The position numbers and the translations under genes were made by a program. Below, one piece after another: positions 15,876 through 30,377 of a stretch of 64,000 nt of DNA (the stretch's first letter is position 1; each line of letters starts with the position of its first letter). The stretch covers positions 115,490 through 179,489 of the IMG/VR virus record IMGVR_UViG_3300036987_000083. One strand, written 5' to 3'. Under the pieces are notes generated by a model, which was given only the letters and a program-made list of their open reading frames with translations, was not told the origin of the DNA and did not search any database. The DNA comes from a virus.

Positions 15876-15961
15876 GGAAAGTAAATCAGACATGGGTCTG
15901 AGCCTGGGTGCTAACCAGTGCGCACCTTCCGGGGTGTGGGGATCGAGACCTCTGCTTTCCG
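15876..15961 (+). tRNA. 8/4 allo-type tRNA-Ser(GCT)
   Basis: 8-bp acceptor GGAAAGTA/TGCTTTCC; 6-bp D stem TCAGAC/GTCTGA; long V arm; 4-bp T stem; loop GTGCTAA. Confidence 0.7.
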
Positions 15962-15967
15962 CTTAAC

Positions 15968-16042
15968 GGTCACGTAGCTCAGTTGGATTAGAGCACTCGC
16001 CTACGAAGCGAGCGGTCGGGGGTTCAAGTCCCTCCGTGATCA
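15968..16042 (+). tRNA. tRNA-Arg(ACG)
   Basis: Cloverleaf; CTCGC-CTACGAA-GCGAG. Confidence 0.9.
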
Positions 16043-16056
16043 CTGAAGCGCTGTTC

Positions 16057-16128
16057 GCGGGCATAGCTCAGAGGCAGAGCGCCAAGTTCCCATCTTGGAT
16101 GCCGAGGGTTCAATTCCCTCTGCCCGCT
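16057..16128 (+). tRNA. tRNA-Gly(CCC)
   Basis: Cloverleaf; CCAAG-TTCCCAT-CTTGG. Confidence 0.9.
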
Positions 16129-16154
16129 CTGTAAAGGCAAAGGCAGCTCAATGC

Positions 16155-16186
16155 CTGAGAAACTGAGAAACTGAGAAACTGAGAGA
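16155..16186 (+). repeat. Tandem 8-mer repeat (CTGAGAAA)x3 + CTGAGAGA
   Basis: Read directly from sequence. Confidence 0.9.
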
Positions 16187-16320
16187 CGAGGCGTAAGTGA
16201 GAGCTACTCCATGGATCTGTGGGTCGGGGGTTCGAATCTCCCTACAAGGATGTACTTGCATAGCTCAGCCTGGTAGAGCAACAGAATAAAAGATGCTTTC
16301 ACTCAAGTACCATCCTCGTC
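16185..16320 (+). ncRNA. Circularly permuted tRNA mimic (YrlA/Y RNA-like) inside a family X frame
   Basis: Order T-arm, closed acceptor hairpin TACAAG/CTTGCA, D-arm; TCTGT/ACAGA stem; outer stems AGTGAGAGC/GCTTTCACT and GACGAGG/CCTCGTC. Confidence 0.75.
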
Positions 16321-16328
16321 TGTTGTAT

Positions 16329-16400
16329 TGGAGAGTGGCGCAATGGTAGCGCAGCGGTTTCTGAAGCCGTTGGTTGAAGGTTCAAGTCCTTCCTCTCCAG
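16329..16400 (+). tRNA. tRNA-Gln(CTG)
   Basis: Cloverleaf; loop TTCTGAA. Confidence 0.9.
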
Positions 16401-16401
16401 C

Positions 16402-16671
16402 ATGAAAACAAAGCGAAGCAAGAAGAGTTCGGTTGGTGTCATGAAGCCTAGAGGTTTGAAAAGCCCGAAGGTCTCCTTCGAAGCCTCCTTGGAGATTCTA
16501 CTCAGTCGTCCCGAGAAGTATGTTGCACAGAAGCACGAATACCTGCGAAGAGCCTGCAGGCGCATCATGAACATTGACATCGACGGCCAGAAGTACCTGA
16601 TGGTGTGCGCCCTGCATCCGGGCCACAAGGCTGCGTGGCACGAGGATGTTGACGGGGGAGTGTACTGGTGA
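16402..16671 (+). CDS. Hypothetical protein
   Basis: Short ORF; stop overlaps the next start. Confidence 0.45.
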   Translation: MKTKRSKKSSVGVMKPRGLKSPKVSFEASLEILLSRPEKYVAQKHEYLRRACRRIMNIDIDGQKYLMVCALHPGHKAAWHEDVDGGVYW

Positions 16672-17012
16672 TTTTTACGTTCGGTAGCAATTTAGCGGGA
16701 CGTCACGGCAAGGGCGCTGCGCTCTTTGCTTGGAAAAACCACGGCGCGGTGTATGGCCAGGGAGTAGGTCCGCAAGGTAACGCGTACGCTATTCCTACCA
16801 AGGATGCATCTATCAGGACGCTTCCTCTTGTAAAAATCAAACCCTACGTAGAAGACTTCATCACTTACGCGAGAGCGAATCCGACGCTCAAGTTTCAAGT
16901 TACAAGAATCGGGTGTGGCTTGGCGGGTTACAAAGATTCGGATATCGCCCCGATGTTCAAGGGTGTGCCTCCGAATTGCGAAATGCCGACGGAATGGGTC
17001 GGACTGTACTAG
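16668..17012 (+). CDS. Conserved phage protein (A1S_2505-like, macrodomain-related fold suspected)
   Basis: FTFGSNLAGRHGKGAA..GVGPQGNAYAIPTKD..FQVTRIGCGLAG. Confidence 0.65.
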   Translation: MIFTFGSNLAGRHGKGAALFAWKNHGAVYGQGVGPQGNAYAIPTKDASIRTLPLVKIKPYVEDFITYARANPTLKFQVTRIGCGLAGYKDSDIAPMFKGVPPNCEMPTEWVGLY

Positions 17013-17042
17013 GCTTTGATTCTGTGTCATAGTTCAAAACCC

Positions 17043-17390
17043 ATGGCCTACAAGAAGAAGCAAGAGCAACGAGATAGTTGGAATCGTTGGTATGCTCGTA
17101 ATCAAACGAAAGTAAGAAAGGCCGTTCGTAAGCGAAAACTAGAGACGAAGCAGTGGCTTGATGCCTATAAGGCTACTCTCCGATGTGAGCACTGTGATGA
17201 AAATCACCCATCCTGTCTTCAGTTTCACCATCTCGACCCCACCAAGAAGGATTTGGAAGTCTCTCTCGGCCCCCAGTGGGGATGGAACATCAAACGTATT
17301 CTAAGAGAAATCGCAAAGTGCGCGATCCTTTGTGCCAATTGTCATATTAAGGAGCATTTCAAACTGAAGGGGTGTGGCCGAATGGCTTAG
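17043..17390 (+). CDS. HNH endonuclease; stop lies in the tRNA-Gln D-arm
   Basis: CEHC..CLQFHHLDP..KCAILCANCHIKEH. Confidence 0.85.
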   Translation: MAYKKKQEQRDSWNRWYARNQTKVRKAVRKRKLETKQWLDAYKATLRCEHCDENHPSCLQFHHLDPTKKDLEVSLGPQWGWNIKRILREIAKCAILCANCHIKEHFKLKGCGRMA

Positions 17391-17439
17391 GCGACGGGCT
17401 TTGAATCCGTTCATCAAGGTTCGATTCCTTGCGCCCCTG
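17368..17439 (+). tRNA. tRNA-Gln(TTG)
   Basis: ACGGG-CTTTGAA-TCCGT; AGGGGTG/CGCCCCT. Confidence 0.85.
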
Positions 17440-17466
17440 TTCAAGGTTCGAGTCCTTGCACCCCAG
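17440..17466 (+). pseudogene. Duplicated T-arm and 3' acceptor strand of a tRNA-Gln
   Basis: TTCAAGGTTCGAGTCCTTGCACCCCAG, a near-copy of the preceding 3' end. Confidence 0.7.
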
Positions 17467-17470
17467 TATT

Positions 17471-17543
17471 GCCCGCTTAGCTCAGATGGCAGAGCAACGC
17501 ATTTGTAATGCGAAGGTCGTGGGTTCAATTCCCTCAGCGGGCT
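17471..17543 (+). tRNA. tRNA-Thr(TGT)
   Basis: Cloverleaf; loop TTTGTAA. Confidence 0.9.
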
Positions 17544-17560
17544 CTGAAACGAGCCACAAC

Positions 17561-17632
17561 GGGCCTATAGCTCAACGGTAGAGCTGGCGGCTCATAACCG
17601 CTTGGTTCCAGGTTCAAATCCTGGTGGGCCCA
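17561..17632 (+). tRNA. tRNA(CAT), probably Ile2 (lysidine type)
   Basis: GGGCCTATAGCTCA..GCGG-CTCATAA-CCGC, resembling Ile2 tRNAs. Confidence 0.75.
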
Positions 17633-17649
17633 CAAATTTCAAGTCGTAT

Positions 17650-17723
17650 TCTCTGGTAGCTCAGTTGGTAGCAGCGGGTGACTGTTAATCACTAGGTCGC
17701 AGGTTCGAGTCCTGCCCAGAGAG
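17650..17723 (+). tRNA. tRNA-Asn(GTT)
   Basis: Cloverleaf; GGTGA-CTGTTAA-TCACT. Confidence 0.9.
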
Positions 17724-17849
17724 CTTTACGTCATGGCATGTTCACGACGCTTTGACAAGGAATGACGGAATTACAATTTCGCTTTTCAGCAAGGTAGGTC
17801 CAGTTTTTACTGCTCACGACAGTGTCAATGGGCTGGGCAGGTGAAGAAT

Positions 17850-17923
17850 GCACTCTGAGCTGATCTGGTGATAGCAATGGGCCGTTAACCCATCCGTGCT
17901 CGGTTCGATTCCGAGAGAGTGCG
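17850..17923 (+). tRNA. Atypical tRNA-Asn(GTT) with C33
   Basis: GCACTCT/AGAGTGC; ATGGG-CCGTTAA-CCCAT; CTCGG-TTCGATT-CCGAG. Confidence 0.65.
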
Positions 17924-18011
17924 CAAGCAGCAACAGCAGGGTTCGACTCCCTGAGAATCCTCTGCTACAGTTAAGCGGTAGACAGTGTGAGTTGTTTGGG
18001 CGTCGGCCCCC

Positions 18012-18440
18012 TTGCGGGAAAAAGCTTGGCTCTCGTCATGCGATGCTAGTACAGTAAATTCCGCAGGAATTGCTTTGGGAGTGGCCTTGTCTACCAAAAG
18101 AAAGAACCCGGAATCGGCTTCTCCGCGTGCTAACAGGGCTAGCAGGCTTGAGGCTCGGGTGCTACAACTCGAACTCGACATGCACAGCATGCGGACAAAA
18201 ATGGACGACCTCGGCGACGACTTGCTCGCGCTTCGTACTACGGTCAAGCAAGTAGACGAGCGTACCCTTCGAGGGGAAGCCGTGATGTTGTCCATGCAGT
18301 TGTCCCAACGTCGAGTGGAGCGGGTGCTAGACGCCGTAGCCGAGAAGCTACAAGTGTCAACAGCTACAGTTGACCGACGCGAAGTAGAACCCCCTGATCC
18401 ACCTGACGAGGACGCGGATCTTGATGCGAGGCACAAATGA
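18012..18440 (+). CDS. Hypothetical coiled-coil protein
   Basis: Heptad pattern; overlaps the next start (ATGA). Confidence 0.5.
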   Translation: MREKAWLSSCDASTVNSAGIALGVALSTKRKNPESASPRANRASRLEARVLQLELDMHSMRTKMDDLGDDLLALRTTVKQVDERTLRGEAVMLSMQLSQRRVERVLDAVAEKLQVSTATVDRREVEPPDPPDEDADLDARHK

Positions 18441-19045
18441 GTGACATCCTTCTTCCGGCTCTTGTGCTGGCTGCCCCTGCGGCGCCTGCAACTACCGTAG
18501 CCTCTGTGGCCCCGGTAGCCCCTGCAGCCCCTGTGACTACTGCGGACCCTTTGACGCCGCTTTACGCGCTAGTAGGCAGCTTGGTGCTCCTGCAGCTCAT
18601 CAAGTCCGGATTCGCATTCGTGAGGTGGCTGGGGGCGAGAACTGTCGCGAACGAGGACAAGGATAAAGCGGAAGTCCGGCGGCAGATTGAGGAGCAAAAG
18701 TTGGAGATGCGCAAGCAGAAAGAAGAACACGAAGCTCGGTTTGAAGAAATCGACAGGACCGTTTCAGCTATTGACCGCGCGATGGGCACGGTTCAGCTAG
18801 AGATGAAGCAAGTGCTCTCAACGGTAGAGTCAACCCGAGGGATGGTTGTTGAAATCAAGGGCTCGATGGACAACCGGTTCGAAAAGCAATCAGATTTCTA
18901 CCGAGGCCAGATTAAAGAGCTGTTGGTCGGTGTGGACAAGCGCCTGGAGGACTTGGAATATGCGCTACGGCAAGATATGTCCAGGGCCATCCACGACTCG
19001 GCGATGATGAGCAAGACCGCCAGCGCGAAGCGCCAAAAGTCATAA
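18437..19045 (+). CDS. Membrane-anchored coiled-coil protein
   Basis: Hydrophobic LYALVGSLVLLQLI segment followed by coiled coil. Confidence 0.6.
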   Translation: MSDILLPALVLAAPAAPATTVASVAPVAPAAPVTTADPLTPLYALVGSLVLLQLIKSGFAFVRWLGARTVANEDKDKAEVRRQIEEQKLEMRKQKEEHEARFEEIDRTVSAIDRAMGTVQLEMKQVLSTVESTRGMVVEIKGSMDNRFEKQSDFYRGQIKELLVGVDKRLEDLEYALRQDMSRAIHDSAMMSKTASAKRQKS

Positions 19046-19396
19046 CCAAGCCAAAGCCATCCGGATGTCTGCGATGCTTGGCGGCTTAGCAATGACCATC
19101 TGAATCACCCGACTTCTGAGTGCGTCTTTAATCGTGTACTCTTGGGGTGCTGCGGTGATGAGGACGCGGCGCACTTCGGGCCGATTTTGTTGCCAGACCG
19201 TCAACACGTCGATGCCGTCAAGCTTGGGCATCATCAAGTCCGTCAGGACTGCGACGATGTCGGCATCCTGTTGGTACTTGGTTGCCGCCGCCATGGAGTC
19301 CAGCTCCAAAATAGACTCAAATCCGCAGAAGTCTACGACTTCGCTGATTAGGCGGGCGACCGAAGCGTCATCATCGATGCAAAGCACTCGTTTCAT
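19040..19396 (-). CDS. Single-domain response regulator (CheY-like receiver)
   Basis: VLCIDDD..VLTDLMMPKLDG..LITA..IAKPP motifs. Confidence 0.9.
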   Translation of the reverse strand: MKRVLCIDDDASVARLISEVVDFCGFESILELDSMAAATKYQQDADIVAVLTDLMMPKLDGIDVLTVWQQNRPEVRRVLITAAPQEYTIKDALRSRVIQMVIAKPPSIADIRMALAWL

Positions 19397-19422
19397 ACCC
19401 GTAGTTTGCCTCAAGAAGCTCT

Positions 19423-19494
19423 GACGAGATAGCCAAGCGGAAAGGCAAGGGGCTGCAAACCCCTCATGCGTGGGTTCAATCCCCACTCTCGTCT
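19423..19494 (+). tRNA. tRNA-Cys(GCA)
   Basis: AGGGG-CTGCAAA-CCCCT. Confidence 0.9.
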
Positions 19495-19549
19495 TCACTC
19501 TTTCAGGAGGTCGTTATGCGAATAGATACCTAACAAGGAGCTATTCACC

Positions 19550-19744
19550 ATGAGCAGGACCAACAAGACGCGTGGATACGGCCGCAAGGGCAAGCACCTC
19601 CAGTGGGCGAAGCAGGAGGGTAACCAACGCGTCAGACACCAGGTGCATGAACGTCTGAAAGACATTCCCTTCACCGACGCCTTCGACGAGAAGGCGCTGC
19701 CCGAGAAGAACATCGAGATTTTCGATCGATGGTACTACGATTGA
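19550..19744 (+). CDS. Small basic hypothetical protein
   Basis: AAGGAG SD; 64 aa. Confidence 0.5.
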   Translation: MSRTNKTRGYGRKGKHLQWAKQEGNQRVRHQVHERLKDIPFTDAFDEKALPEKNIEIFDRWYYD

Positions 19745-19774
19745 AGTACCTGCTGGAGGCGACTCCAGCAGCAA

Positions 19775-19847
19775 GGCCCCGTCAGTCTAAAGGCTAGGAC
19801 GCCGCCCTCTCACGGCGGAAATGCGAGTTCGATTCTCGCCGGGGTCA
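19775..19847 (+). tRNA. tRNA-Glu(CTC)
   Basis: CCGCC-CTCTCAC-GGCGG. Confidence 0.9.
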
Positions 19848-20000
19848 CATGAAACCGTATTCACAGGCTTACGACGCGACCAAGATGAGGAAAGAGTGTT
19901 GGCGTGGGGCTCCGTATGCGTCTAGGAATCGCTCATACAAAAAGGCGATGCGCAGGAAAGCAAAAATTCAGATTCAAAAAGAAGTCGTAGCGTAACACCC

Positions 20001-20072
20001 GGCCCTATCGTCTAGCGGCAAGGACACTGGCTTTTCAATCCGGGAACGAGAGTTCAATTCTCTCTAGGGTCA
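20001..20072 (+). tRNA. tRNA-Glu(TTC)
   Basis: Cloverleaf; loop TTTTCAA. Confidence 0.85.
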
Positions 20073-20074
20073 CT

Positions 20075-20200
20075 CTGGGTATAGCTTAAGAGCATGGGTC
20101 TTTTCCTCCCGTAACTTCGAAGCTACGTTGGAAAAGCGAAGTGGCTTGGTAGAGCACGCCCCTTAAGGCGAGGATCCTGGTGCGAGTCCGGGTGCCTGGA
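20075..20200 (+). ncRNA. tRNA-like RNA with a ~55-nt structured D-loop insertion and 6-nt anticodon loop
   Basis: CTGGGTA/TGCCTGG; GCTT..GAGC D stem; insert CTTTTCC/GGAAAAG; CGCC-CCTTAA-GGCG. Confidence 0.55.
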
Positions 20201-20220
20201 CTTGTAGGTGTAGTTGGGAA

Positions 20221-20273
20221 CGGGAAGTAGCGCAGTCTGGTAGCGCATAGCATCTTGGATATGCTAGAGGTCG
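20221..20273 (+). pseudogene. 5' two-thirds of a tRNA-Pro(TGG), truncated before the T-arm
   Basis: CGGGAAGTAGCGCAGTCTGGTAGCGC..TAGCAT-CTTGGAT-ATGCTA-GAGGTCG, then HNH ATG. Confidence 0.75.
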
Positions 20274-20276
20274 ACG

Positions 20277-20645
20277 ATGTCCTCGACCATGCAGCAGTAT
20301 CGCGACCGCATTTCTAGGCTGACTGTGCTTTTAGGGAGTAAATGTGTAGGCTGTGGGGCTACACAAGATCTTCAGTTTGATCACATAGACCCCACCACTA
20401 AGTTGTTTACGGTTACAAAGGGCTGGGCCTTCTCATGGGAGAAGGTACTGACGGAGGCTAGGAAGTGTCAGCTCCTTTGCAAAAAGTGTCATGAAGCTAA
20501 GTCGCTAGCGGCCGGAGATATCCCGCCTAGAGCACTACACGGCACAGAGGGACGATATCGACACCACAAGTGCCGGTGTGCTCTATGCAAAGAAGCACAT
20601 CGAGATAGGATGCGAGAGTATAGATTGTGTAAAAACGGGGTATAG
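20277..20645 (+). CDS. HNH endonuclease; stop lies inside tRNA-Pro
   Basis: CVGC..LQFDHIDP..KCQLLCKKCH; HGTEGRY..CRCALC tail. Confidence 0.85.
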   Translation: MSSTMQQYRDRISRLTVLLGSKCVGCGATQDLQFDHIDPTTKLFTVTKGWAFSWEKVLTEARKCQLLCKKCHEAKSLAAGDIPPRALHGTEGRYRHHKCRCALCKEAHRDRMREYRLCKNGV

Positions 20646-20709
20646 CGAAGCTTGGTATCGCGTCTGCTTTGGGAGCAGAAGATCGCTGGTTCAAATCCAG
20701 CTACCCCGA
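20636..20709 (+). tRNA. tRNA-Pro(TGG)
   Basis: TCTGC-TTTGGGA-GCAGA. Confidence 0.9.
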
Positions 20710-20785
20710 CAAAGTTGCCTGAAGTAACTAACACAAGACTCTGGTCTGTTTCGGTCAGAGGTTGGCCTTCTGTGCAACTCAATAA

Positions 20786-20859
20786 CGAGCTGTAGCACAG
20801 CCTGGTAGTGCGTACCCTTGGGGTGGGTAAGGTCGCTGGTTCGAATCCAGTCAGCTCGA
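20786..20859 (+). tRNA. tRNA-Pro(GGG)
   Basis: TACCC-TTGGGGT-GGGTA. Confidence 0.9.
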
Positions 20860-20886
20860 CATCGAATGAATGAATGAATGAAGCAC

Positions 20887-20960
20887 CGAGGAGTAGCTCA
20901 GCCTGGTAGAGCACTTGGTTCGGGACCAAGGGGTCGCAGGTTCGATTCCTGTCTCCTCGA
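20887..20960 (+). tRNA. tRNA-Pro(CGG)
   Basis: CTTGG-TTCGGGA-CCAAG. Confidence 0.9.
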
Positions 20961-20973
20961 CTTGGAGGAAAGC

Positions 20974-21213
20974 ATGAAAACAAACCATCAACGTCAGTTC
21001 AAAGCAGTCGGGGGTTTCGCGTTGCGAGTTCGATACGACTCGCAAACCAAGAAGCTGCCGATTGGGCTTGGAAGTGTAGGGGCTTCTTACGGTGGCGACG
21101 CTGTGAATGGGCATCGAGGCGAAGCGAAGGTGAAGCGGGGTGCGAAGAAGTACCTCCGAAACCAAGTGAGAAAGACCGCCTTCGTACACATTCGGGACTC
21201 TAGCGAAGCTTGA
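20974..21213 (+). CDS. Small basic hypothetical protein
   Basis: GGAGG SD before ATG. Confidence 0.5.
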   Translation: MKTNHQRQFKAVGGFALRVRYDSQTKKLPIGLGSVGASYGGDAVNGHRGEAKVKRGAKKYLRNQVRKTAFVHIRDSSEA

Positions 21214-21282
21214 TAGTGGCGCACTACCTGAAGAAATGGATGTCAGGTTGGTGGAGAAAATGACGTAGATTCAGCAGCACAC

Positions 21283-21354
21283 GCGCCTGTAGCTCAGTGG
21301 TAGAGCAATCGCTTGATAAGCGATAGGCCGATGGTTCGAGCCCATCTAGGCGCA
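21283..21354 (+). tRNA. tRNA-Ile(GAT)
   Basis: ATCGC-TTGATAA-GCGAT. Confidence 0.9.
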
Positions 21355-21360
21355 CTGTTT

Positions 21361-21506
21361 CACCCGGCCGAGTAATTCTTACACGCAATCGTCATATGTT
21401 GGTTCGAATCCAACCCTCCCCACCTCACGGGGAGGTAGCCAAACTGGTTAGGCAACGGCCTATTAAGCCGTCTCGCAAGAGACTCTATGGATTTCTCACT
21501 CGGGTG
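21361..21506 (+). ncRNA. Second circularly permuted tRNA mimic
   Basis: GTTGG-TTCGAAT-CCAAC, then CCTCCCC-ACCTCAC-GGGGAGG hairpin, then D-arm GCC..GGC; outer stem CACCC..GAGT/ACTCGGGTG. Confidence 0.7.
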
Positions 21507-21519
21507 AAGCAAACTGTAT

Positions 21520-21591
21520 GGCGGTCGTAGCTCAGTGGTAGAGCGTTTGGCTGTGACCCAGAAGGCGCGGGTTCGATTCCCGCCGACCGCC
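21520..21591 (+). tRNA. tRNA-His(GTG) with encoded G-1
   Basis: TTTGG-CTGTGAC-CCAGA; G-1:C73. Confidence 0.9.
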
Positions 21592-21651
21592 CAGTAAGTA
21601 ACTGGTGGTGTTGCAAACGTAGGGGGCTGGTATCCCTGCGTAGTTTTTCTT

Positions 21652-21725
21652 GGGGTATTAGAGGAGAGGCCGTCCTCGTTAGCCTGTCACGCTGAAGATC
21701 ACGGGTTCGAATCCCGTATACCCCG
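21652..21725 (+). tRNA. tRNA-Asp(GTC), unusual D-arm
   Basis: TTAGC-CTGTCAC-GCTGA; D stem GAGGA/TCCTC. Confidence 0.85.
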
Positions 21726-21737
21726 CTGTAACGCAAC

Positions 21738-21810
21738 GCGGATCTAGCAATGATGGTTCATGCACTCGCCTGAAGAGCGAAGTATCTCGGTTCGATTCCG
21801 AGGGTCCGCA
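21738..21810 (+). tRNA. tRNA-Phe(GAA)
   Basis: TCGC-CTGAAGA-GCGA. Confidence 0.85.
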
Positions 21811-21811
21811 C

Positions 21812-22228
21812 ATGATTAAACGCGAAGATTGCAAAGAACGAGTCCTGTACCGCATTCACTCTAGGAACTTGGAGTTCGGCGTATTTGATTCCAAGGATGG
21901 TGGCTTCATCGGCTTGCGTGAGAAGTTCGGGGAGACGTTTATTTTCAAGGAGTATCACTACGACAACGGCGCTCCCTACGGGACGGTTCGACCCGAAGAA
22001 GCGTTGCCTGAGCGACTGCCAGATGCGATTCTGTTGGCGGCAAGTCGTCCAGGTTCTGTTTGTGGTTGTTGTGATCAGTTTGTCGATTTCGACGAAAAGC
22101 TTCCACCTAAGGAGCGCTGGTTTCACTTGGTGGAGTCAAGCTGCAAAGAGGTAAGGCCGCACTCAAGAGGTAACCCGGATTTCGGAAAGTGGTTACACGA
22201 GATGGAAGATAAGTACCGCAGTAAGTAG
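21812..22228 (+). CDS. Hypothetical protein
   Basis: 138-aa ORF between tRNAs. Confidence 0.6.
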   Translation: MIKREDCKERVLYRIHSRNLEFGVFDSKDGGFIGLREKFGETFIFKEYHYDNGAPYGTVRPEEALPERLPDAILLAASRPGSVCGCCDQFVDFDEKLPPKERWFHLVESSCKEVRPHSRGNPDFGKWLHEMEDKYRSK

Positions 22229-22233
22229 CAACT

Positions 22234-22306
22234 GGGGCTGTAGCTCACTTGGGAGAGCGCTTCCATGGCATGGAAGAGGTAGTCGGTTCGATCCCGTCCA
22301 GCTCCA
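22234..22306 (+). tRNA. tRNA-Ala(GGC)
   Basis: CTTCC-ATGGCAT-GGAAG; G3:U70. Confidence 0.9.
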
Positions 22307-22377
22307 CAAAGCCGAACCAGAGACGGAGTTCTCGTCTCTGAGAGGCGCCTTTTATGCGCCTCGTGTTCGGCTGTAAT

Positions 22378-22449: not shown

Positions 22450-22523
22450 CAGGGTGTGGGGTCAGGCGAACACTAAGCCTCCCTAAGTGGGCCGGGTTCG
22501 ACCCGGAACACCCGAAATAGTTT

Positions 22524-23704: not shown

Positions 23705-23880
23705 AGGTAAGGTAGTCGGCTTAAGAGCAGCCAGCTTTAATGAGTGGGACCCCCTTCAGGACGCGAGCGCGGCGAAATGAAGGAAACGGAAGTAACCTCA
23801 GCAACCGTTACGCCCCGGGTCATACCCGGGAACCGAACACCCGCTTTGGTTTCCCTTTGGCGTAGCAGCACGCCTTGCCT
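23705..23880 (+). ncRNA. RNA mimicking 23S rRNA H43-H44 (L11/GTPase-associated centre) with a ~110-nt insertion
   Basis: GTCGGCTTAAGAGCAGCCAGCTTTAATGAGTG..GCGTAGCAGCAC, closed by AGGTAAGG/CCTTGCCT. Confidence 0.7.
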
Positions 23881-23946
23881 AAACTAAAGTTCTGGTACGA
23901 CAGTTCCGATTAACCCTGACGCTGCCGAACGTTGGGACAAGCTAAT

Positions 23947-24019
23947 GCTGCTATAGCTCAACTGGTGGAGCCCCTCCTTGGTAAGGAGGAGGATGAGAGT
24001 TCAAATCTCTCTGGCAGCT
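23947..24019 (+). tRNA. tRNA-Thr(GGT)
   Basis: CCTCC-TTGGTAA-GGAGG. Confidence 0.9.
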
Positions 24020-24028
24020 TGTTTGTTT

Positions 24029-24070
24029 TTGGTAAGTGAGAGGTCCTGGGTTCGAATCCCATCGGGAGCA
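24029..24070 (+). pseudogene. 3' half of a second tRNA-Thr(GGT), starting at the anticodon loop
   Basis: TTGGTAA-GTGAG-AGGTC-CTGGGTTCGAATCCCAT-CGGGAGCA. Confidence 0.75.
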
Positions 24071-24071
24071 T

Positions 24072-24278
24072 ATGAAAAAAGCAATCAAGGCCGGAGAGAC
24101 GCCTGTGCGGCACGCTGATTGGACGATAGTAGTTCACGAAAAGGACCAAACTACTTGCAAGCACGGCTCAGGCAATTGTGAAACGTGTGGCACTAGTAAT
24201 CACCGCGATAGGCGGCACACGACTACTGGCGGTAAAGGGTTGGTCGCTCAGCTTCGAGAGAAGAAGTCCCGTAGGTAA
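24072..24278 (+). CDS. Small Cys/His-containing hypothetical protein
   Basis: ATG after GGGAG; CKHG..CETC. Confidence 0.45.
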   Translation: MKKAIKAGETPVRHADWTIVVHEKDQTTCKHGSGNCETCGTSNHRDRRHTTTGGKGLVAQLREKKSRR

Positions 24279-24350
24279 TCCCTTTCGAATAGTGGCAGAG
24301 ACGGACGTCAAACCGACAGTGAGCAGAGTTACCTGTCACCTAGTGATTTT

Positions 24351-24425
24351 GTTCTCGTAGCTCAGTTGGATTAGAGCAGCGGCCTTCGAAGCCGATGGTC
24401 GGGGGTTCGAGTCCCTCCGAGAATG
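24351..24425 (+). tRNA. tRNA-Arg(TCG)
   Basis: CGGC-CTTCGAA-GCCG. Confidence 0.9.
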
Positions 24426-24430
24426 CTGTT

Positions 24431-24505
24431 GGTCCTGTAGCTCAGTTGGATTAGAGCGTTTGGTTCCGAACCAAAAGGTCGGGGGTTCGAGTCCCTCCAG
24501 GATCG
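24431..24505 (+). tRNA. tRNA-Arg(CCG)
   Basis: TTTGG-TTCCGAA-CCAAA. Confidence 0.9.
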
Positions 24506-24637
24506 CTTGCCTACACCCGAAGACTGACACGCACCAAGTGCAAGCTGCTGTATTTGCAGGATAAACTTGATTTCTTGGGCCATGCCGACCTGTGAAGTAC
24601 CCTTGCCCCTACGTCGAAGCACTCCCTGGGGGCACTC

Positions 24638-25135
24638 GTGGAAGCTCTTAAACTAGTATTGGATCTCCCACAGAAAAGGCAGAACACTCCGTTCACCTGT
24701 GGGCCAGTAGCCCTGTCTATGGTTTTGGCAGGATTTGGGGTAGTGAGCACCGAAAAGGGTCTCGCGAAACTCATGAAGGCCTCCCCCAAGCATGGAGTGC
24801 CTCCAGCTACCATCGCAAAAACGGCCAGGAAATTCGGTCTCAAGGCTAAAGCCGTTACGGGACTCACGATTGGTCAACTTGAAAAGCACATCAAGGCTGG
24901 ACGACCTGTAATCGCGGCCATCCAATCCTGGGCCAAGCGGCCCGTGAACTACGCAACGAGTTGGGAGGACGGGCACTACGTGGTGGTAGTCGGTATCGAC
25001 AGCCAGAACGTCCACTTGAGGGACCCTTCAACTCCATCTCTGCGGACTCTCTCCAGAGAGAGCTTCATGCGCAGGTGGCATGACTACAGCAAGGATGAAG
25101 TCTTTGTGCAGCTAGGAATCATTTTCAGTAGGTAA
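24638..25135 (+). CDS. C39-family cysteine peptidase
   Basis: RQNTPFTCGPVALSMVL..GHYVVVVGIDSQNVHLRDP (Cys-His-Asp). Confidence 0.85.
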   Translation: MEALKLVLDLPQKRQNTPFTCGPVALSMVLAGFGVVSTEKGLAKLMKASPKHGVPPATIAKTARKFGLKAKAVTGLTIGQLEKHIKAGRPVIAAIQSWAKRPVNYATSWEDGHYVVVVGIDSQNVHLRDPSTPSLRTLSRESFMRRWHDYSKDEVFVQLGIIFSR

Positions 25136-25136
25136 T

Positions 25137-25210
25137 GCTCTCGTCGTCTAGTTGGATAAGGCCTCCGTTTCCTAAACGGATGATCGCAAGTTCGAATCTT
25201 GCCGAGAGCG
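25137..25210 (+). tRNA. tRNA-Arg(CCT)
   Basis: TCCGT-TTCCTAA-ACGGA. Confidence 0.9.
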
Positions 25211-25272
25211 CTATGGGTGGGGGAGCCCATAACGACGTTGACAACAAGTTGTGCAACAGGTACTATCACTGT

Positions 25273-25346
<74 letters not shown>

Positions 25347-25399
25347 CTTCAAGCAGGACCGGTAGGTGGCGCGTCGGACTGCCCACCTAGTGTCTTTCT

Positions 25400-25472
25400 C
25401 GTGATGTCGCCAAGTGGGAAGGCAGCGGTTTCATAATCCGCAACTGAGGTGGTTCGATTCCACCCATCACGA
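25400..25472 (+). tRNA. tRNA-Met(CAT)
   Basis: CGTGATG/CATCACG; loop TTCATAA. Confidence 0.8.
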
Positions 25473-25479
25473 CTGAGTG

Positions 25480-25652
25480 CTGTGAGCGCATCACTCGCCT
25501 CAAAAAGGCGCTCCGACATCACAGTGGTACGAGAGTCTGAGTCTGTAGCGAGTCCAAAGGGCTCCGAGCGCAGTGATGCCTCGGCAAGTGGCGACACTTG
25601 GTGACACGGCCAGCCACGCGAAAGGACGCTCGTCGTCGTTAAACGCTGTACC
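25480..25652 (+). ncRNA. Structured intergenic RNA with a possible pseudoknot
   Basis: CTGTGA/TCACAG; loop GCATCACT complementary to downstream AGTGATGC; CAAGTG/CACTTG. Confidence 0.4.
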
Positions 25653-25659
25653 TTTTTCT

Positions 25660-25730
25660 GCCCGCGTAGCTCGAAGGTCGAGCGTCCCTTTCACATGGGG
25701 AAGGCGACGGTTCGATTCCGTCCGTGGGTA
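25660..25730 (+). tRNA. tRNA-Val(CAC)
   Basis: TCCCT-TTCACAT-GGGGA. Confidence 0.85.
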
Positions 25731-25745
25731 CTGAGGAGCTTCTCT

Positions 25746-26000
25746 ATGGATAAGAATGCGCTGGCCATGTACCGACGATTTTGCAGAAATGCTGAGCGTC
25801 TATACCTCAAGGAGTACCCCCTAAAGCAGTATGATGCGGACCTGCGGGCTTGTTTCCACGAGCAGCTCGCTCACGCGGGCGTTGCTGGAGAGAAATTGAA
25901 CTCCGCCATCTGCTACGTGCCCGGAGGGCTCATCCTGAAGTTTGAAACAAAGGAGGTCGCTTTTGAAGACCTTTTCGACGCGAGGTGTGCAGCAGAATAA
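25746..26000 (+). CDS. Small hypothetical protein
   Basis: GAGGAG SD before ATG. Confidence 0.5.
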   Translation: MDKNALAMYRRFCRNAERLYLKEYPLKQYDADLRACFHEQLAHAGVAGEKLNSAICYVPGGLILKFETKEVAFEDLFDARCAAE

Positions 26001-26086
26001 GCTCGGGTGGCGGAACTGGTAGACGCGCTAGATTCAGGGTCTAGAGGGGGGCAACCCCCGTGAGAGTTCGATTCTCTCTCCGAGCA
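26001..26086 (+). tRNA. tRNA-Leu(CAG)
   Basis: CTAGA-TTCAGGG-TCTAG; long V arm. Confidence 0.9.
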
Positions 26087-26123
26087 CTTGACAACCGCAG
26101 TCCTGGTGGTGTAGAAGCGCCGA

Positions 26124-26390
26124 ATGGAAGGCCGGTACGAAGCCGCAAGCAGGACCTACGAGATGTTCTTGGGGTTCGCGAAGGAGCTTAAGGTTCCTAG
26201 CACTGTCGGCCAGCAGCATCCTCCCAATGGAGCGCATAGGGAATCGTATTTCGTTCCCAGCGACATCGTCATGTTCGACTACGCTTACCTTCTTAGGGCA
26301 CCAGACGCTGGCTGCTCCAATGAAGATGTTCATCAGTTCGATTCAACAGGTAGATGTACGGTTTGTGGATCACACCGCAGACCCGCTTAA
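26124..26390 (+). CDS. Small hypothetical protein
   Basis: ORF after TTGACA box at 26088. Confidence 0.45.
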   Translation: MEGRYEAASRTYEMFLGFAKELKVPSTVGQQHPPNGAHRESYFVPSDIVMFDYAYLLRAPDAGCSNEDVHQFDSTGRCTVCGSHRRPA

Positions 26391-26396
26391 TGTAAT

Positions 26397-26480
26397 GCTC
26401 CGGTGGCGGAATTGGTAGACGCACCAGCTTGAGGGGCTGGCGACCGAAAGGTCATAGGGGTTCGATTCCCCTCTGGAGCA
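26397..26480 (+). tRNA. tRNA-Leu(GAG)
   Basis: CCAGC-TTGAGGG-GCTGG. Confidence 0.9.
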
Positions 26481-26492
26481 CAGAAAGGAATT

Positions 26493-26897
26493 ATGAAGCA
26501 GGAAACTTACCGGTCACCTTGGTTTGATCTTGAAGGGTGCTTGGCCTGTACGGTCAAATATTCGGACGGTTCAAAGGGTACTGTTCTTCAACACCGGGAA
26601 GTTATGGAGCAAGTTCTCGGTCGTAAGTTGAAGCCGCAGGAACTGGTGCATCACAAGAATAGCAACAAGCGGGACAACTCGCCTACCAATTTGAAGATCA
26701 CTTCCAGACCTGCGCACGCCGCCGAGCACGCCAAGACTAGGGTTCCCGAGCTTCTAGAAGTAACCTGTTTGGAGTGTGGAAAGACTTCGCTGAAGCTAGC
26801 TAGGCAAGTAAGGCACAACCAAATTGGTCAACAAAAGCCTGGTCCTTTTTGTGGTCGAAGTTGTGCTGGTAGATTTAACGGACGTAAACGTATTTGA
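26493..26897 (+). CDS. HNH endonuclease (HNH_3 type); stop abuts tRNA-Leu
   Basis: LQHREVME..LGRKLKPQELVHHKNSNKRDNSPTNL. Confidence 0.9.
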   Translation: MKQETYRSPWFDLEGCLACTVKYSDGSKGTVLQHREVMEQVLGRKLKPQELVHHKNSNKRDNSPTNLKITSRPAHAAEHAKTRVPELLEVTCLECGKTSLKLARQVRHNQIGQQKPGPFCGRSCAGRFNGRKRI

Positions 26898-26981
26898 GGG
26901 CTAGTGGCGAAACTGGTAGTCGCGCCAGATTTAGGGTCTGGTGGGGGAAACCCCGTGAGAGTTCGAGTCTCTCCTTGCCCA
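26898..26981 (+). tRNA. tRNA-Leu(TAG)
   Basis: CCAGA-TTTAGGG-TCTGG. Confidence 0.9.
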
Positions 26982-26989
26982 TGTATTGC

Positions 26990-27073
26990 TGCCCGGTGGC
27001 GGAATTGGTAGACGTGGTGGACTTAAAATCCATTGCCCTTCGGGGCGTACGAGTTCGAGTCTCGTTCGGGTAA
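26990..27073 (+). tRNA. tRNA-Leu(TAA)
   Basis: GTGGA-CTTAAAA-TCCAT. Confidence 0.9.
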
Positions 27074-27087
27074 CACGAAATTGCTTT

Positions 27088-27171
27088 GCCCCTGTGGCGG
27101 AATTGGTAAACGCATCAGACTCAAAATCTGACGCCTTAACGGGCTTGAGGGTTCGATTCCCTCTGGGGGCA
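27088..27171 (+). tRNA. tRNA-Leu(CAA)
   Basis: TCAGA-CTCAAAA-TCTGA. Confidence 0.9.
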
Positions 27172-27216
27172 CAGGTGGGCTATCCTTAGTCGGGAAGCTC
27201 ACTTTCGGAGAGTTCA

Positions 27217-27501
27217 ATGTTTCAACAATTGATTCAGCAGTTGAAGGAAGCGAAGCATAAGTTCAGCGCCGCCGATGCTCGACGCATCGGCAACAAGCTC
27301 GGGGTTAACTGGAAGAGGGTCAACCTCGAACAGTTTCGTATGGGCTTGGAGGTGGAGTCCGAGCACGACCAGGGCGACAACATCGACGTGGTCGGCCCTC
27401 AGACGGATCTTGGAAAAATTGCCCTAGCGCACTTGAAGGAGCTTCCAGACTACTACACGCGCCTGAGGCGCATGGAGAAGGACGCGAACGCAGAAGAGTA
27501 G
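27217..27501 (+). CDS. DUF5661-like protein
   Basis: EQFRMGLEVESEH..LGKIALAHLKELPDYYTRLRRME. Confidence 0.75.
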   Translation: MFQQLIQQLKEAKHKFSAADARRIGNKLGVNWKRVNLEQFRMGLEVESEHDQGDNIDVVGPQTDLGKIALAHLKELPDYYTRLRRMEKDANAEE

Positions 27502-27568
27502 AGATTCGAGCGCAGTCAGCTCCATGGTTGTTCACCCGTCGTACAAAACATACAAGGAGGCCGGTAAC

Positions 27569-28114
27569 ATGGAAACTCTAGTTCTGAGCGCGTCGTATGA
27601 GCCAGTTAGCCGGGTCTCCTGGCAGCGAGCGATTACTCTTATTTGGGAAAACAAGGTTGAGGTCATTGAGGAGTACGAGAACCGGTTTGTGCACTCGGTT
27701 ACTCTCGAATTCAAGATGCCTTCAGTCATTCGGTTCCTGAAGGCCATTCGTGGGCGGAAGCGCGCTATCAAGTTCAGCCGCGAGAACGTGTTTGCTCGTG
27801 ACAACGGTCGTTGCCAGTACTGCGCAGTGAAACTGGCGCGTGCGGAATCCACTTACGACCACGTAATCCCTCGGGCAATGGGAGGGCATACGCGGTGGGA
27901 GAACGTTGTAATCGCGTGCTACGCCTGCAACCAGAAGAAAGGCTGCAAGACACCTGAGCAGGCAAAGATGAAGCTGCTCACGCAGCCCATCAAGCCGAAG
28001 AAGCTTCCTGATACACTTCGGCTCACCTTCCAAGTGACAAAGGATACTCCGGATTCGTGGAAGCAGTGGATTGCCTCCGTGAACTACTGGAACACCGAGT
28101 TGGATCAGGACTAA
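27569..28114 (+). CDS. HNH endonuclease (McrA/HNH_5-like)
   Basis: VLSASYEP..FSRENVFARDNGRCQYC..TYDHVIPR..GG..WENVVIACYACNQKKG. Confidence 0.9.
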   Translation: METLVLSASYEPVSRVSWQRAITLIWENKVEVIEEYENRFVHSVTLEFKMPSVIRFLKAIRGRKRAIKFSRENVFARDNGRCQYCAVKLARAESTYDHVIPRAMGGHTRWENVVIACYACNQKKGCKTPEQAKMKLLTQPIKPKKLPDTLRLTFQVTKDTPDSWKQWIASVNYWNTELDQD

Positions 28115-28162
28115 AGAGGTGGACAGGGACTCAAGAGGTTTGAGTCCTCACAGAGGTGAGGC

Positions 28163-28414
28163 ATGAGCGTAAGAGCGAAGATGCGTTGCACGAGAAGGTC
28201 TGAAAGCACTTCGGTTTGCACGAGCAATGGGTCAGTCGAGTCTGTAGAGGTACATCTCCAGCCAGTATACGGAACTGGAGAGGACGACTCGAACAAGGAA
28301 TGGTCTAAGTGGACGCCGAGTGGTGAGGTGCGGATGGTCATCACCAACCCGGAAGCCTATAACCAGTTTGAAGTCGGCAAGACGTACTTTGTCGATTTCA
28401 TTGCTGTAGACTAG
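28163..28414 (+). CDS. Conserved small phage hypothetical protein
   Basis: VRAKMRC..ENKEWSKWTPSGEVRMVITNP..FEVGKTYFVDF pattern; GAGG SD. Confidence 0.7.
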   Translation: MSVRAKMRCTRRSESTSVCTSNGSVESVEVHLQPVYGTGEDDSNKEWSKWTPSGEVRMVITNPEAYNQFEVGKTYFVDFIAVD

Positions 28415-28456
28415 GACCACCTGCCGCCGGGCCCCCAGGGCGCATCTGGGGGTTTT

Positions 28457-28490
28457 GGAAGATTGGGTGAGTGGCTCATACCAGCGGTCT
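28457..28490 (+). pseudogene. 5' half of a canonical tRNA-Ser(GGA)
   Basis: GGAAGAT..GCGGTCT; pairs with the 3' half at 29048-29100. Confidence 0.8.
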
Positions 28491-28493
28491 TTT

Positions 28494-28578
28494 GGAGAGG
28501 TAACTGGTCAGGGACCGGGCTCGACTTGAAATCGAAGCGTGCCTTCATGGGCATGGGGATCAAGACCTCACTTCTCCG
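28494..28578 (+). tRNA. 8/4 allo-type tRNA-Ser(TGA), nested in the split tRNA
   Basis: GGAGAGGT/ACTTCTCC; CTGGTC/GACCGG; TCGA-CTTGAAA-TCGA; GGGG/CCTC T stem. Confidence 0.75.
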
Positions 28579-28579
28579 C

Positions 28580-29038
28580 ATGAACAACTCACAGGTGCAA
28601 AAAGGTGACGTAGCGGTACTGATTGCAACAGCCAAATTCATGGAGGCTGGGCTTATCGTTCTAAAGCCCGTGAGTGAATCTCTACCGTATGACTTAGTAA
28701 TTGCCACCGACAAGCACTTCTACAGAGTTCAAGTGAAGAGGGCTCAGAAGCGCCGCGCGAGCCCAGGAAGATACAGTATCCCGTTCAGGAAAGTGACCGT
28801 CAATAGGAACAAAACAAAGGTCTACACCTATACTGAGGAGCACACAGACTTCCTTGTAGGTGTGATAGTAGAGACGTCCGAACTGTACGTTTACCCTCTT
28901 GCTGAGATCAAGAACATCAGCTCAATGGTGGTCGTCGACCCGGGCGGATTGTCAAAGAAACGCAATGGTCCTCAAAAAGTAGATTCTGAGAGGTACCGAA
29001 ACGTACTTAACTTCGAAGGTAGAAAAATAAAATTGTAG
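28580..29038 (+). CDS. PD-(D/E)XK homing-type endonuclease (I-Ssp6803I/PDDEXK_5-like)
   Basis: KGDVA..G..VLKP....YDLV......RVQVK. Confidence 0.85.
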   Translation: MNNSQVQKGDVAVLIATAKFMEAGLIVLKPVSESLPYDLVIATDKHFYRVQVKRAQKRRASPGRYSIPFRKVTVNRNKTKVYTYTEEHTDFLVGVIVETSELYVYPLAEIKNISSMVVVDPGGLSKKRNGPQKVDSERYRNVLNFEGRKIKL

Positions 29039-29047
29039 TTCTGGATT

Positions 29048-29100
29048 GGAAAACCGCCAGTCCCGAGAGGGGCTCGAAGGTTCGAATCCTTCATCTTCCG
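29048..29100 (+). pseudogene. 3' half of the canonical tRNA-Ser(GGA)
   Basis: GGAAA-ACCGC, V arm, GAAGG-TTCGAAT-CCTTC, ATCTTCC-G. Confidence 0.8.
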
Positions 29101-29105
29101 CTGTT

Positions 29106-29191
29106 GGAAAGTGTGCTGGTCACGGGACCAGGCCTCGCTCGAAACGAGTGCGTGCCTGCAAGGGCACGGGGTTCGATTCCTCCACTTTCCA
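29106..29191 (+). tRNA. 8/4 allo-type tRNA-Ser(CGA)
   Basis: GGAAAGTG/CACTTTCC; CTGGTC-ACGG-GACCAG; CTCG-CTCGAAA-CGAG; GGGG-TTCGATT-CCTC. Confidence 0.8.
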
Positions 29192-29220
29192 TATGAGTTC
29201 GATTGTAGTACCTTCCGCAT

Positions 29221-29580
29221 ATGGGTTATCTCGATCCCGAAGCGCAGCGTAAGTACCAGCGGGAATGGAGAGCGCTACGGCGGGCTGAGTGGTTTAACGG
29301 AAAGAAATGCGTTGAGTGCGGTTCGACCCAAAATCTAGAGTTGGACCACATTGACCCTTCTAAAAAGGTGACCCACAACGTGTGGTCGTGGTCGAAAAAG
29401 CGTCGCGATGCCGAGCTGGGGAAGTGTCAAGCACTCTGCGATGTCTGCCATCAGAAAAAGACCATCGAGACCCGCGAAGTGCGAACGGATCACGGGCGAG
29501 GTCAGATGTACCAAAACTACGGGTGTCGCTGCGTGAAGTGCCGGGCGTGGAAGAGTGCTTCAGATAAACTGTATCGCTAG
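29221..29580 (+). CDS. HNH endonuclease
   Basis: CVECGSTQNLELDHIDP..KCQALCDVCHQKK; HGRG..Y..GCRCVKC. Confidence 0.9.
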   Translation: MGYLDPEAQRKYQREWRALRRAEWFNGKKCVECGSTQNLELDHIDPSKKVTHNVWSWSKKRRDAELGKCQALCDVCHQKKTIETREVRTDHGRGQMYQNYGCRCVKCRAWKSASDKLYR

Positions 29581-29664
29581 GTCTTTCCGCTCCGATGTCA
29601 GGGTTTCGAAGATAGTAACGACCACATGGTCGGACGCAGCACGCAGCACTTCTAAGGACGCCGT

Positions 29665-30285
29665 ATGAAACCGTACCCTTCGATTCCCCGGGCGACCGGT
29701 CGAAGCTTTCACGAAATTCCCAACGCGTACATCTTCGACAAGCTCGATGGTCGTAACATCCGAGTAGAGTGGTCGAGGAGGAACGGCTGGGGCAAGTGGG
29801 GTACACGGCACCGTCTGTTCGATGCCACGGATGCTGAGTTTGCTCCGGCAATTCCGCTCTTTGAGCAGGTCTACGCGGAGCCCATGACAAAGATTGCCAG
29901 AGACAACCGCTGGGAGAGCGTGACGGCATTTCTAGAGTTGTGGCAACCGAACAGTCTCGGGGGTGTTTGGGTTCCAGGAGAGCCGTACACGCTTACGCTG
30001 TTCGACGTGGCACCCTTCAAGCAGTGCCAGATGGCCCCGAAAGAGTTCATAGCGACCTTCAAGGGTGTCCCTACAGCGGCATTCTTGGGGCAGGCCAATT
30101 GGACCCGAGGCTACGTAGAGCGAGTGCGCTCAGGTCAAGTTGAAGGGGTAACTTTTGAGGGTGTCGTGGCGAAGGCAGGCGAGAAGCACAAGCTGGTGCT
30201 GTCGAAAGCGAAGCAGCAACGGTGGGTAGACGCGCTGAAGGCCAGGTATGGCGAGCAGGAAGGCAAGAGGCTTGCCGAGTCGTAG
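29665..30285 (+). CDS. ATP-dependent RNA-ligase-like nucleotidyltransferase
   Basis: Motif I DKLDG; FLELW; LFDV; FEGVVAK. Confidence 0.7.
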   Translation: MKPYPSIPRATGRSFHEIPNAYIFDKLDGRNIRVEWSRRNGWGKWGTRHRLFDATDAEFAPAIPLFEQVYAEPMTKIARDNRWESVTAFLELWQPNSLGGVWVPGEPYTLTLFDVAPFKQCQMAPKEFIATFKGVPTAAFLGQANWTRGYVERVRSGQVEGVTFEGVVAKAGEKHKLVLSKAKQQRWVDALKARYGEQEGKRLAES

Positions 30286-30292
30286 GAATTTT

Positions 30293-30377
30293 GGAGAGTT
30301 AACTAGCTAGGAGCTAGACCCGGTTGGAAACCGGTGGGTACCTGCAAAGGTATGAGATTCGAGTTCTCAGCTTTCCG
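30293..30377 (+). tRNA. 8/4 allo-type tRNA-Ser(GGA)
   Basis: GGAGAGTT/AGCTTTCC; CTAGCT/AGCTAG; CCGG-TTGGAAA-CCGG; GAGA-TTCGAGT-TCTC. Confidence 0.8.

Follow-up and report, generated by a model that had tools for sequence, protein, structure and literature searches.

Four (8/4) serine tRNA genes form the intact serine-decoding set of a large uncultured phage

The tRNA array in the 64,000-nucleotide stretch analysed here (the window; positions 115,490 to 179,489 of IMG/VR virus record IMGVR_UViG_3300036987_000083) contains four serine tRNA (tRNA-Ser) genes whose cloverleaf combines an acceptor stem of 8 bp with a T stem of 4 bp, the (8/4) form, in place of the canonical 7 and 5 bp (7/5). The viral contig, from an uncultured phage, is 179,489 bp long with 57.6% GC and a CheckV completeness of ~88%. 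All four genes are on the plus strand and were scored with R1, a covariance model built from them. tRNA-Ser(GCU) at 15876..15961 (96.7 bits) has the anticodon loop GUGCUAA and the T-loop AUCGAGA, tRNA-Ser(UGA) at 28494..28578 (95.4 bits) has the T-loop AUCAAGA and lies inside the insert of a split canonical tRNA-Ser gene, tRNA-Ser(CGA) at 29106..29191 (100.4 bits) has the T-loop UUCGAUU, and tRNA-Ser(GGA) at 30293..30377 (93.6 bits) has the T-loop UUCGAGU and is directly upstream of tRNA-Arg(UCU) at 30452. The discriminator is G73 in three of the genes and A73 in Ser(CGA). GCU reads AGY and the other three anticodons read UCN, and the genes thus make up a complete serine-decoding set. Searching the 179-kb contig with ARAGORN gave no other tRNA-Ser besides the interrupted canonical gene, bearing out a first-pass annotation of the window in which the split gene was the only 7/5 tRNA-Ser. 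The same annotation held that the phage had replaced its whole serine set; the intact set is indeed entirely (8/4), while replacement describes this state and is not a demonstrated event.

Minimum-energy folding gave the four genes a common layout. The acceptor stem has 8 bp and is joined by a 2-nt linker to a D stem of 6 bp, whose 3-4 nt loop ends in GG; nucleotide 26 is missing, and the anticodon stem, also of 6 bp, bulges out one nucleotide on its 3' side. The variable stem has 6 bp and a tetraloop, and the T stem has 4 bp and a loop of 7 nt. The 8-bp acceptor, 4-bp T stem, 6-bp D stem with its 3-4 nt loop and long variable arm had been recognized in the first-pass annotation, with correct coordinates and in agreement with our folds and covariation, whereas the extended and bulged anticodon stem had been overlooked. 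G18 and G19 are retained in the D loops (AUGG, AGG, ACGG and AGG), and no gene shows the 7-bp acceptor, 5-bp T stem, 3-4 bp D stem, large D loop and RF00005 match that characterize canonical tRNA-Ser. The (8/4) fold was more stable than a forced 7/5 fold in each case, by 1.4-6.3 kcal/mol, with the largest difference for Ser(CGA). The eighth acceptor pair differs between the genes (A-U, U-A, G-C and U-A), and position 49:65 of a 7/5 fold would be U.U, U-A, C.C and U-A; for Ser(CGA), this means a G-C pair in one register and C.C in the other.

The genes could in principle be ordinary 7/5 tRNA-Ser with a mismatch at 49:65, the (8/4) form being an artefact of folding four sequences, and this register is formally possible since U49-A65 could pair in the UGA and GGA genes. 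As four paralogues are too few to settle the matter, relatives were collected. A pattern of invariant columns led to five other viral contigs, in each of which R1 found a set of four serine isoacceptors. A first alignment comprised 16 distinct sequences, drawn from 4 phage lineages; 97.3% of its cells were paired and 23 of 30 pairs showed compensatory double changes. The eighth acceptor pair (8:80) was formed in 15 of the 16 sequences (as GC, AU or UA), and the pair needed by the 7/5 alternative in 3; nucleotide '49' was instead the closing pair of the variable stem in all 16. All six pairs of the D stem covary, the outermost pair of the anticodon stem was weaker (11/16), and G1-C72, G2-C71 and A3-U70 were conserved. 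For 25 sequences from nine genomes, aligned with MAFFT and left unfitted, RNAalifold returned an identical structure with the eighth pair in 25 of 25.

A wider census comprised 147 distinct sequences, with pairs, discriminators and anticodons counted over 138. The eighth pair was formed in 134 of them, by four pair types (GC 64, AU 32, UA 19, CG 16), and the pair required for a 7/5 fold in 42, leaving it unpaired in 96. Only the (8/4) register was possible in 95 sequences, compared with 3 for which only the 7/5 register was. The first-pass annotation had allowed for a better fold as standard 7/5 tRNAs; the 7/5 pair rarely forms, the (8/4) fold was favoured in all four genes, and in either register the D arm and the anticodon stem depart from the canonical form. 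The covariation refutes the 7/5 interpretation, to which we give practically no credence, and confirms that the four genes truly adopt an (8/4) cloverleaf, well beyond chance. The discriminator was G73 in 129 of the 138, U in 6 and A in 3, one of these being the Ser(CGA) of the window. The anticodons were GCT (35), TGA (25), CGA (24), GGA (24) and a single GTT, with 29 of the 138 left unread by a quick parser; a regular-expression re-reading of the 97 matches behind one of the alignments (A4) left one anticodon unread.

The T-loops of Ser(GCU) and Ser(UGA) had been termed aberrant. The sequences reported for them (ATCGAGA and ATCAAGA) are correct, but the loops are a regular form of the family, in which positions 54 and 60 covary as U54/U60 (69 of 138) or A54/A60 (46 of 138), and both genes carry the latter. 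The A54/A60 combination is otherwise known from eukaryotic initiator tRNAs.

Placed in the context of the phage tRNA complement, the four genes close a specific gap. With default settings, ARAGORN found 46 tRNAs in the contig, of which 42 lie in the window; none is for serine or tyrosine, and the Rfam tRNA model recovered the same 42 in the window. All four (8/4) genes were missed by default ARAGORN, and by the Rfam model both at its gathering threshold and at E<=10, as had been anticipated in the first-pass annotation; Ser(GCU) was called by ARAGORN only at -ps80 and Ser(UGA) only at -ps90. Serine and tyrosine were the only amino acids left uncovered by ARAGORN, and the four (8/4) genes together with a canonical tRNA-Tyr fill this gap exactly, bringing the complement to ~51 genes with all 20 amino acids represented. 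The tRNA-Tyr(GUA) gene (15040-15125) is a 7/5, class II tRNA that was called neither by default ARAGORN nor by the Rfam tRNA model at gathering; it appeared in ARAGORN only at relaxed -ps settings and in Rfam only as a sub-threshold 34-bit match to selenocysteine tRNA (tRNA-Sec). Among the class II tRNAs, the five leucine species and this tyrosine one are canonical, and serine alone has been rebuilt.

The genes might also be tRNA-like RNAs with no part in translation, such as decayed genes, regulatory RNAs or recombination targets. A non-translational role has been suggested for many allo-tRNA(UAU), and among the allo-tRNA groups are some that are inactive in E. coli and associated with transposons and with loci for toxin-antitoxin systems (Mukai et al., Nucleic Acids Res 2017, PMC5389517). 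The window genes for their part lie amid homing endonuclease genes, and two of the four have non-standard T-loops. Against this, every helix is intact, with compensatory changes over more than 100 sequences, the anticodons are those of serine only and form the standard four-isoacceptor set, and the genes fill the sole gap in otherwise complete complements, including those of two complete genomes. We regard a non-translational nature as very improbable.

The architecture itself is not new. The first-pass annotation had cited the allo-tRNA paper of Mukai et al. (2017) and overlooked that the same paper already covers phage (8/4) tRNA-Ser, which its main text describes from bacteriophages, proteobacteria and rumen Clostridia. 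Our genes share with these the 12-bp branch split 8/4, the long variable arm, G73, a lengthened, Sec-like D stem whose loop is small, a longer anticodon stem, serine anticodons and a location in phage tRNA clusters, and are a clean new example of a published tRNA type and not a new kind of RNA. The Figure 1 legend of that paper also classes (8/4) tRNA-Ser with Y20 as allo-tRNA; given the 6-bp D stem, the D loops in the window have no pyrimidine after G18 G19 (in our numbering, from which that of the figure may differ). In the alphaproteobacterial phage tRNA clusters described in the main text, (8/4) tRNA-Ser coexists with an (8/4) tRNA-His that lacks G-1. Unlike in those clusters, the tRNA-His of the window is canonical, with G-1 and C73, and one serine isoacceptor has A73. 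Given this canonical tRNA-His, the phage host is probably not in the alphaproteobacterial group of those examples. Compared with the main text of Mukai et al., the complete four-isoacceptor sets, the 54/60 covariation of the T-loop and the linkage to endonucleases are additions of the present analysis, which the supplement of that paper may already cover. The literature searched yielded no later paper taking up the phage (8/4) tRNA-Ser genes.

Two other tRNA types resemble the window genes. The (8/4) and 9/3 allo-tRNAs of Acidobacteria and other groups follow the same scaffold logic and carry serine identity elements, and an (8/4) member from Silvibacterium is serylated and used in E. coli translation; in the main text of Mukai et al. 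(2017) they differ in having Leu, Ile, Arg, Asp or stop anticodons, so that they would recode or are inactive, whereas the window genes have cognate serine anticodons only and no recoding is implied. Bacterial tRNA-Sec (RF01852) has a similar 8-bp acceptor, tetraloop-capped 6-bp D stem, 6-bp anticodon stem and long variable arm and is serylated by seryl-tRNA synthetase (SerRS), as the window genes are expected to be, but its branch is 13 bp (8/5, with 9/4 also counted as tRNA-Sec), its anticodon is UCA and it is excluded from EF-Tu. A tRNA-Sec identity was rejected on the basis of the 12-bp branch, the sense anticodons and scores of at most 37.2 bits, the value for Ser(CGA), against a gathering score of 47.

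The (8/4) tRNA-Ser genes are widespread. A single strict pattern, wider than that of the first search, matched ~50 viral contigs and 22 loci in species-representative genomes. Complete four-isoacceptor (8/4) sets occur in at least 14 viral contigs, even in short stretches: the window, G001/G004, G002/G003, G005, G011 and nine more. Neither of the complete genomes G005 and G011 has a canonical tRNA-Ser; their serine tRNAs are (8/4) only. An ARAGORN call of Ser(GGA) in G002 (57478-57570) has no tRNA fold and was set aside. The carriers are divergent, with 25, 6 and 9 open reading frames (ORFs) in common with the window phage, and their contigs span 45% to 73% GC. In spite of sharing only 9 ORFs of >=100 aa, the window phage and G011 have syntenic tRNA arrays over ~16 kb (14404-30528 in the window and 86648-95307 in G011), in the order Trp, Gly, Tyr, Thr, Lys, Lys, Gly ... 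four to five Leu, an HNH gene, the serine cluster and Arg-UCU, and the two Ser(CGA) copies are 85% identical. As a unit, the tRNA array acts like a module that is conserved or transferable.

A search of isolated phages with megablast (27000-31000 of the window) gave no match, and a distant blastn search with Ser(CGA) gave none either. The isolated Caulobacter phage CcrPW (NC_048046; locus L041 in our set), an alphaproteobacterial phage of the kind mentioned in the main text of Mukai et al. (2017), carries three (8/4) genes, for Ser CGA, GGA and GCU (11627-11712, 11720-11806 and 11976-12062), which are without annotation in the RefSeq record, alongside one canonical Ser(UGA). These (8/4) genes encode CCA, and two of the three have the T-loop AUGGUGU. 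The canonical CcrPW gene scored 56.8 bits with the Rfam tRNA model, unlike its (8/4) genes; RF00005 matched no (8/4) serine gene in the window, G005 or CcrPW at either threshold. Since routine annotation overlooks (8/4) genes, the tRNA complements given for phages with such genomes are in systematic error, as is any inference that one of them has no tRNA-Ser. A published and little-followed tRNA architecture is thus common in large phages, where it often makes up the entire serine-decoding set, and CcrPW on C. vibrioides CB15 is an isolated, tractable phage-host pair for asking why only serine tRNAs adopt the (8/4) body.

In Nocardia, Roseibium and a Phycisphaerales metagenome-assembled genome (MAG), (8/4) genes are found in extra clusters or arrays, and canonical 7/5 tRNA-Ser genes elsewhere in the genome. 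The scaffold is accessory in cells, as the carriers retain their canonical tRNA-Ser. In Roseibium sp. SCP15 (L044, a 1.39-Mb contig, 4633-5081) and at L051, L061 and L063, chromosomal clusters comprise four (8/4) serine isoacceptors and an 83-nt tRNA to which ARAGORN assigns Cys, Tyr or Phe depending on the genome; this tRNA may be another non-canonical class II-like species. MAG labels on contigs with dense tRNA arrays were mostly Myxococcota, and these contigs may be binned phage DNA.

The fold, its conservation and the restriction to serine anticodons were observed directly, and we consider it likely that the genes are true serine tRNAs of the (8/4) type, functional and handed down as an accessory lineage. 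Going by established rules and by the work of Mukai et al. (2017) on a related (8/4) tRNA, the genes would be transcribed within the tRNA array and processed by the RNase P and 3' end-processing enzymes of the host. ARAGORN found CCA encoded by none of the tRNAs of this phage, which means that the host would have to add it. Recognition by SerRS depends on the long variable arm, G73 and the first acceptor pairs, with no part played by the anticodon, and the host enzyme would be expected to serylate all four tRNAs. The SerRS domains PF00587 and PF02403 gave no match in five viral records (G000, G001, G002, G004 and G005), so that charging must fall to a host enzyme; a phage-encoded SerRS forming an orthogonal pair with these tRNAs was rejected on the same grounds. 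EF-Tu and the ribosome may be expected to accept the tRNAs given that the acceptor/T stack is still 12 bp, as 8+4 rather than 7+5. A precedent is the Silvibacterium (8/4) allo-tRNA with serine identity, which is folded, processed, serylated, delivered by EF-Tu and used by the ribosome in E. coli (Mukai et al. 2017).

For the scaffold itself, descent is the best explanation, as an old accessory tRNA-Ser lineage that moves in phage tRNA arrays and extra bacterial clusters and diversifies by duplication and anticodon switching. Since the anticodon is free in SerRS recognition, one (8/4) gene can yield all isoacceptors. Mean identity was 0.71 within a genome, 0.69 between genomes for the same anticodon and 0.67 otherwise, a weak signal that is mixed on orthology versus duplication. 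Some nearest neighbours belong to the same genome and differ in anticodon; the GGA and GCT genes of CcrPW, which are 91% identical, support duplication followed by anticodon change.

Several points weigh against functional inheritance of this kind. Compatibility with the host SerRS is assumed, A73 in Ser(CGA) may reduce serylation, and the A54/A60 T-loops of two of the four genes may affect elbow formation and the modification of T54. As the contig is ~88% complete, a canonical tRNA-Ser gene could sit in its missing part. Descent, moreover, accounts for where the scaffold came from and not for its upkeep over canonical genes.

Counter-defence, as raised in the first-pass annotation, would add a selective reason to descent without excluding it. 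The (8/4) body, the Sec-like D arm and the bulged anticodon stem could make these tRNAs poor substrates for a host nuclease, modifying toxin or other factor that recognizes canonical tRNA-Ser, so that serine decoding survives the attack. In keeping with this, the (8/4) genes are unlike the cell's own canonical tRNA-Ser wherever a cellular genome could be checked, and the leucine and tyrosine tRNAs of the phage have canonical bodies. Mycobacterial VapCs cut tRNA-Ser GGA, UGA and CGA in the anticodon, and phage tRNAs have been proposed to be nuclease-resistant (van den Berg et al., eLife 2023, PMC10264068); bacterial Schlafen nucleases cleave both host and phage tRNAs (PMC13056530). The phage tRNAs of van den Berg et al. 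are similarly large sets that differ from those of the host, with serine isoacceptors discussed as VapC targets, but their differences are point changes in the anticodon loop, whereas in the window genes the whole tRNA body differs.

RNA-repair-like genes of the phage are also compatible with counter-defence. They comprise RtcB (58053-59330, 358 bits), an ORF with a KxDG motif between two of the (8/4) genes (29665-30285) that has a weak match to a PHROG RNA ligase (E 7e-4) and no relatives found in a related-locus search, and a 768-aa protein (42829-45135) with a Zeta-toxin/AAA_33, polynucleotide-kinase-like, domain. RtcB was also tried as a host marker and was uninformative, its best matches being <50% identical and to phages of many hosts. 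Several observations nevertheless speak against counter-defence. VapCs target the anticodon stem-loop, and the anticodon loops of the window genes are ordinary serine loops with the same GA sites. CcrPW mixes its three (8/4) genes with a canonical Ser(UGA). The 45-73% GC range of the contigs points to probably many hosts, a pattern more in line with inheritance and portability than with evasion of one specific toxin. We also know of no nuclease that reads the acceptor/T/D body of tRNA-Ser. Counter-defence is plausible but on balance an unlikely reason for the upkeep of the scaffold.

The split canonical gene bears on how (8/4) genes may come to stand in place of 7/5 genes. Its 5' half (28457..28489, plus strand) has the acceptor strand GGAAGAU and an ordinary D arm and ends in the anticodon loop, and its 3' half (29047..29101, plus strand) has the T arm GAAGG-UUCGAAU-CCUUC, the acceptor strand AUCUUCC and G73. 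When introns are permitted, ARAGORN takes 28457-29101 for a canonical Ser(GGA) of 88 nt with a 557-nt insert at 33/34; the junction can be shifted by 1-2 T residues, so that GGA and UGA are equally valid readings of the broken gene. The insert consists wholly of the (8/4) Ser(UGA) gene and an ORF (28580..29038, plus strand) for a PD-(D/E)XK endonuclease of the I-Ssp6803I family (PDDEXK_5, PF11645, 82.3 bits, E 4e-23; phrog_5018). A group I intron at this site is unsupported, there being no Rfam match and the insert being fully occupied by the tRNA and the ORF. At the syntenic position, G011 has the hairpin that precedes this unit in the window, and its (8/4) Ser(CGA) comes directly after it; both the canonical gene and the cassette are absent. 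Since all-(8/4) serine clusters are usual in the syntenic arrays (G005, G011), the canonical gene is the exception in this lineage.

A second endonuclease gene, of the HNH type (27569..28114, plus strand; Pfam HNH_5, 55.8 bits), is directly 5' of the (8/4) serine cluster. Homologues with 35-70% identity lie on the same strand 3-1100 bp upstream of (8/4) serine genes in G005, G011/L133, L042, L043, L055, L062, L122 and L123 (G005 4070-4585; L159, from G011, ~7170-7724; L042 1744-2247; L043 2739-3242; L055 4798-5298; L062 4192-4704), and the arrangement thus recurs in at least seven further contigs that are in other respects unrelated. In G011, the HNH stop codon abuts the first (8/4) tRNA. The nesting of the PD-(D/E)XK gene with Ser(UGA) inside a broken gene, and the conserved HNH gene 5' of the clusters, prompted the idea that homing endonucleases spread the (8/4) serine scaffold as a portable replacement module. 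They would cut or displace canonical tRNA-Ser genes and deliver an (8/4) copy that is not cut, and the altered body would also free decoding from host factors directed at canonical tRNA-Ser. If true, this would account for the conversion of whole, exclusively serine, sets in many unrelated large phages, although we hold it to be a distinctly long shot.

A few further calls in the arrays are unusual. Sub-threshold Rfam matches within the tRNA array of the window (16197-16305 and 23292-23367) were to YrlA, a Y RNA-like family (39 vs 69 bits), and to permuted transfer-messenger RNA (tmRNA)/beta-tmRNA (41 vs 47 bits). ARAGORN called tRNA-Ile with the anticodons AAT and TAT (window 35070-35144, G000 43838-43910), which is unusual for bacteria, and G011 also has a His(ATG) call.

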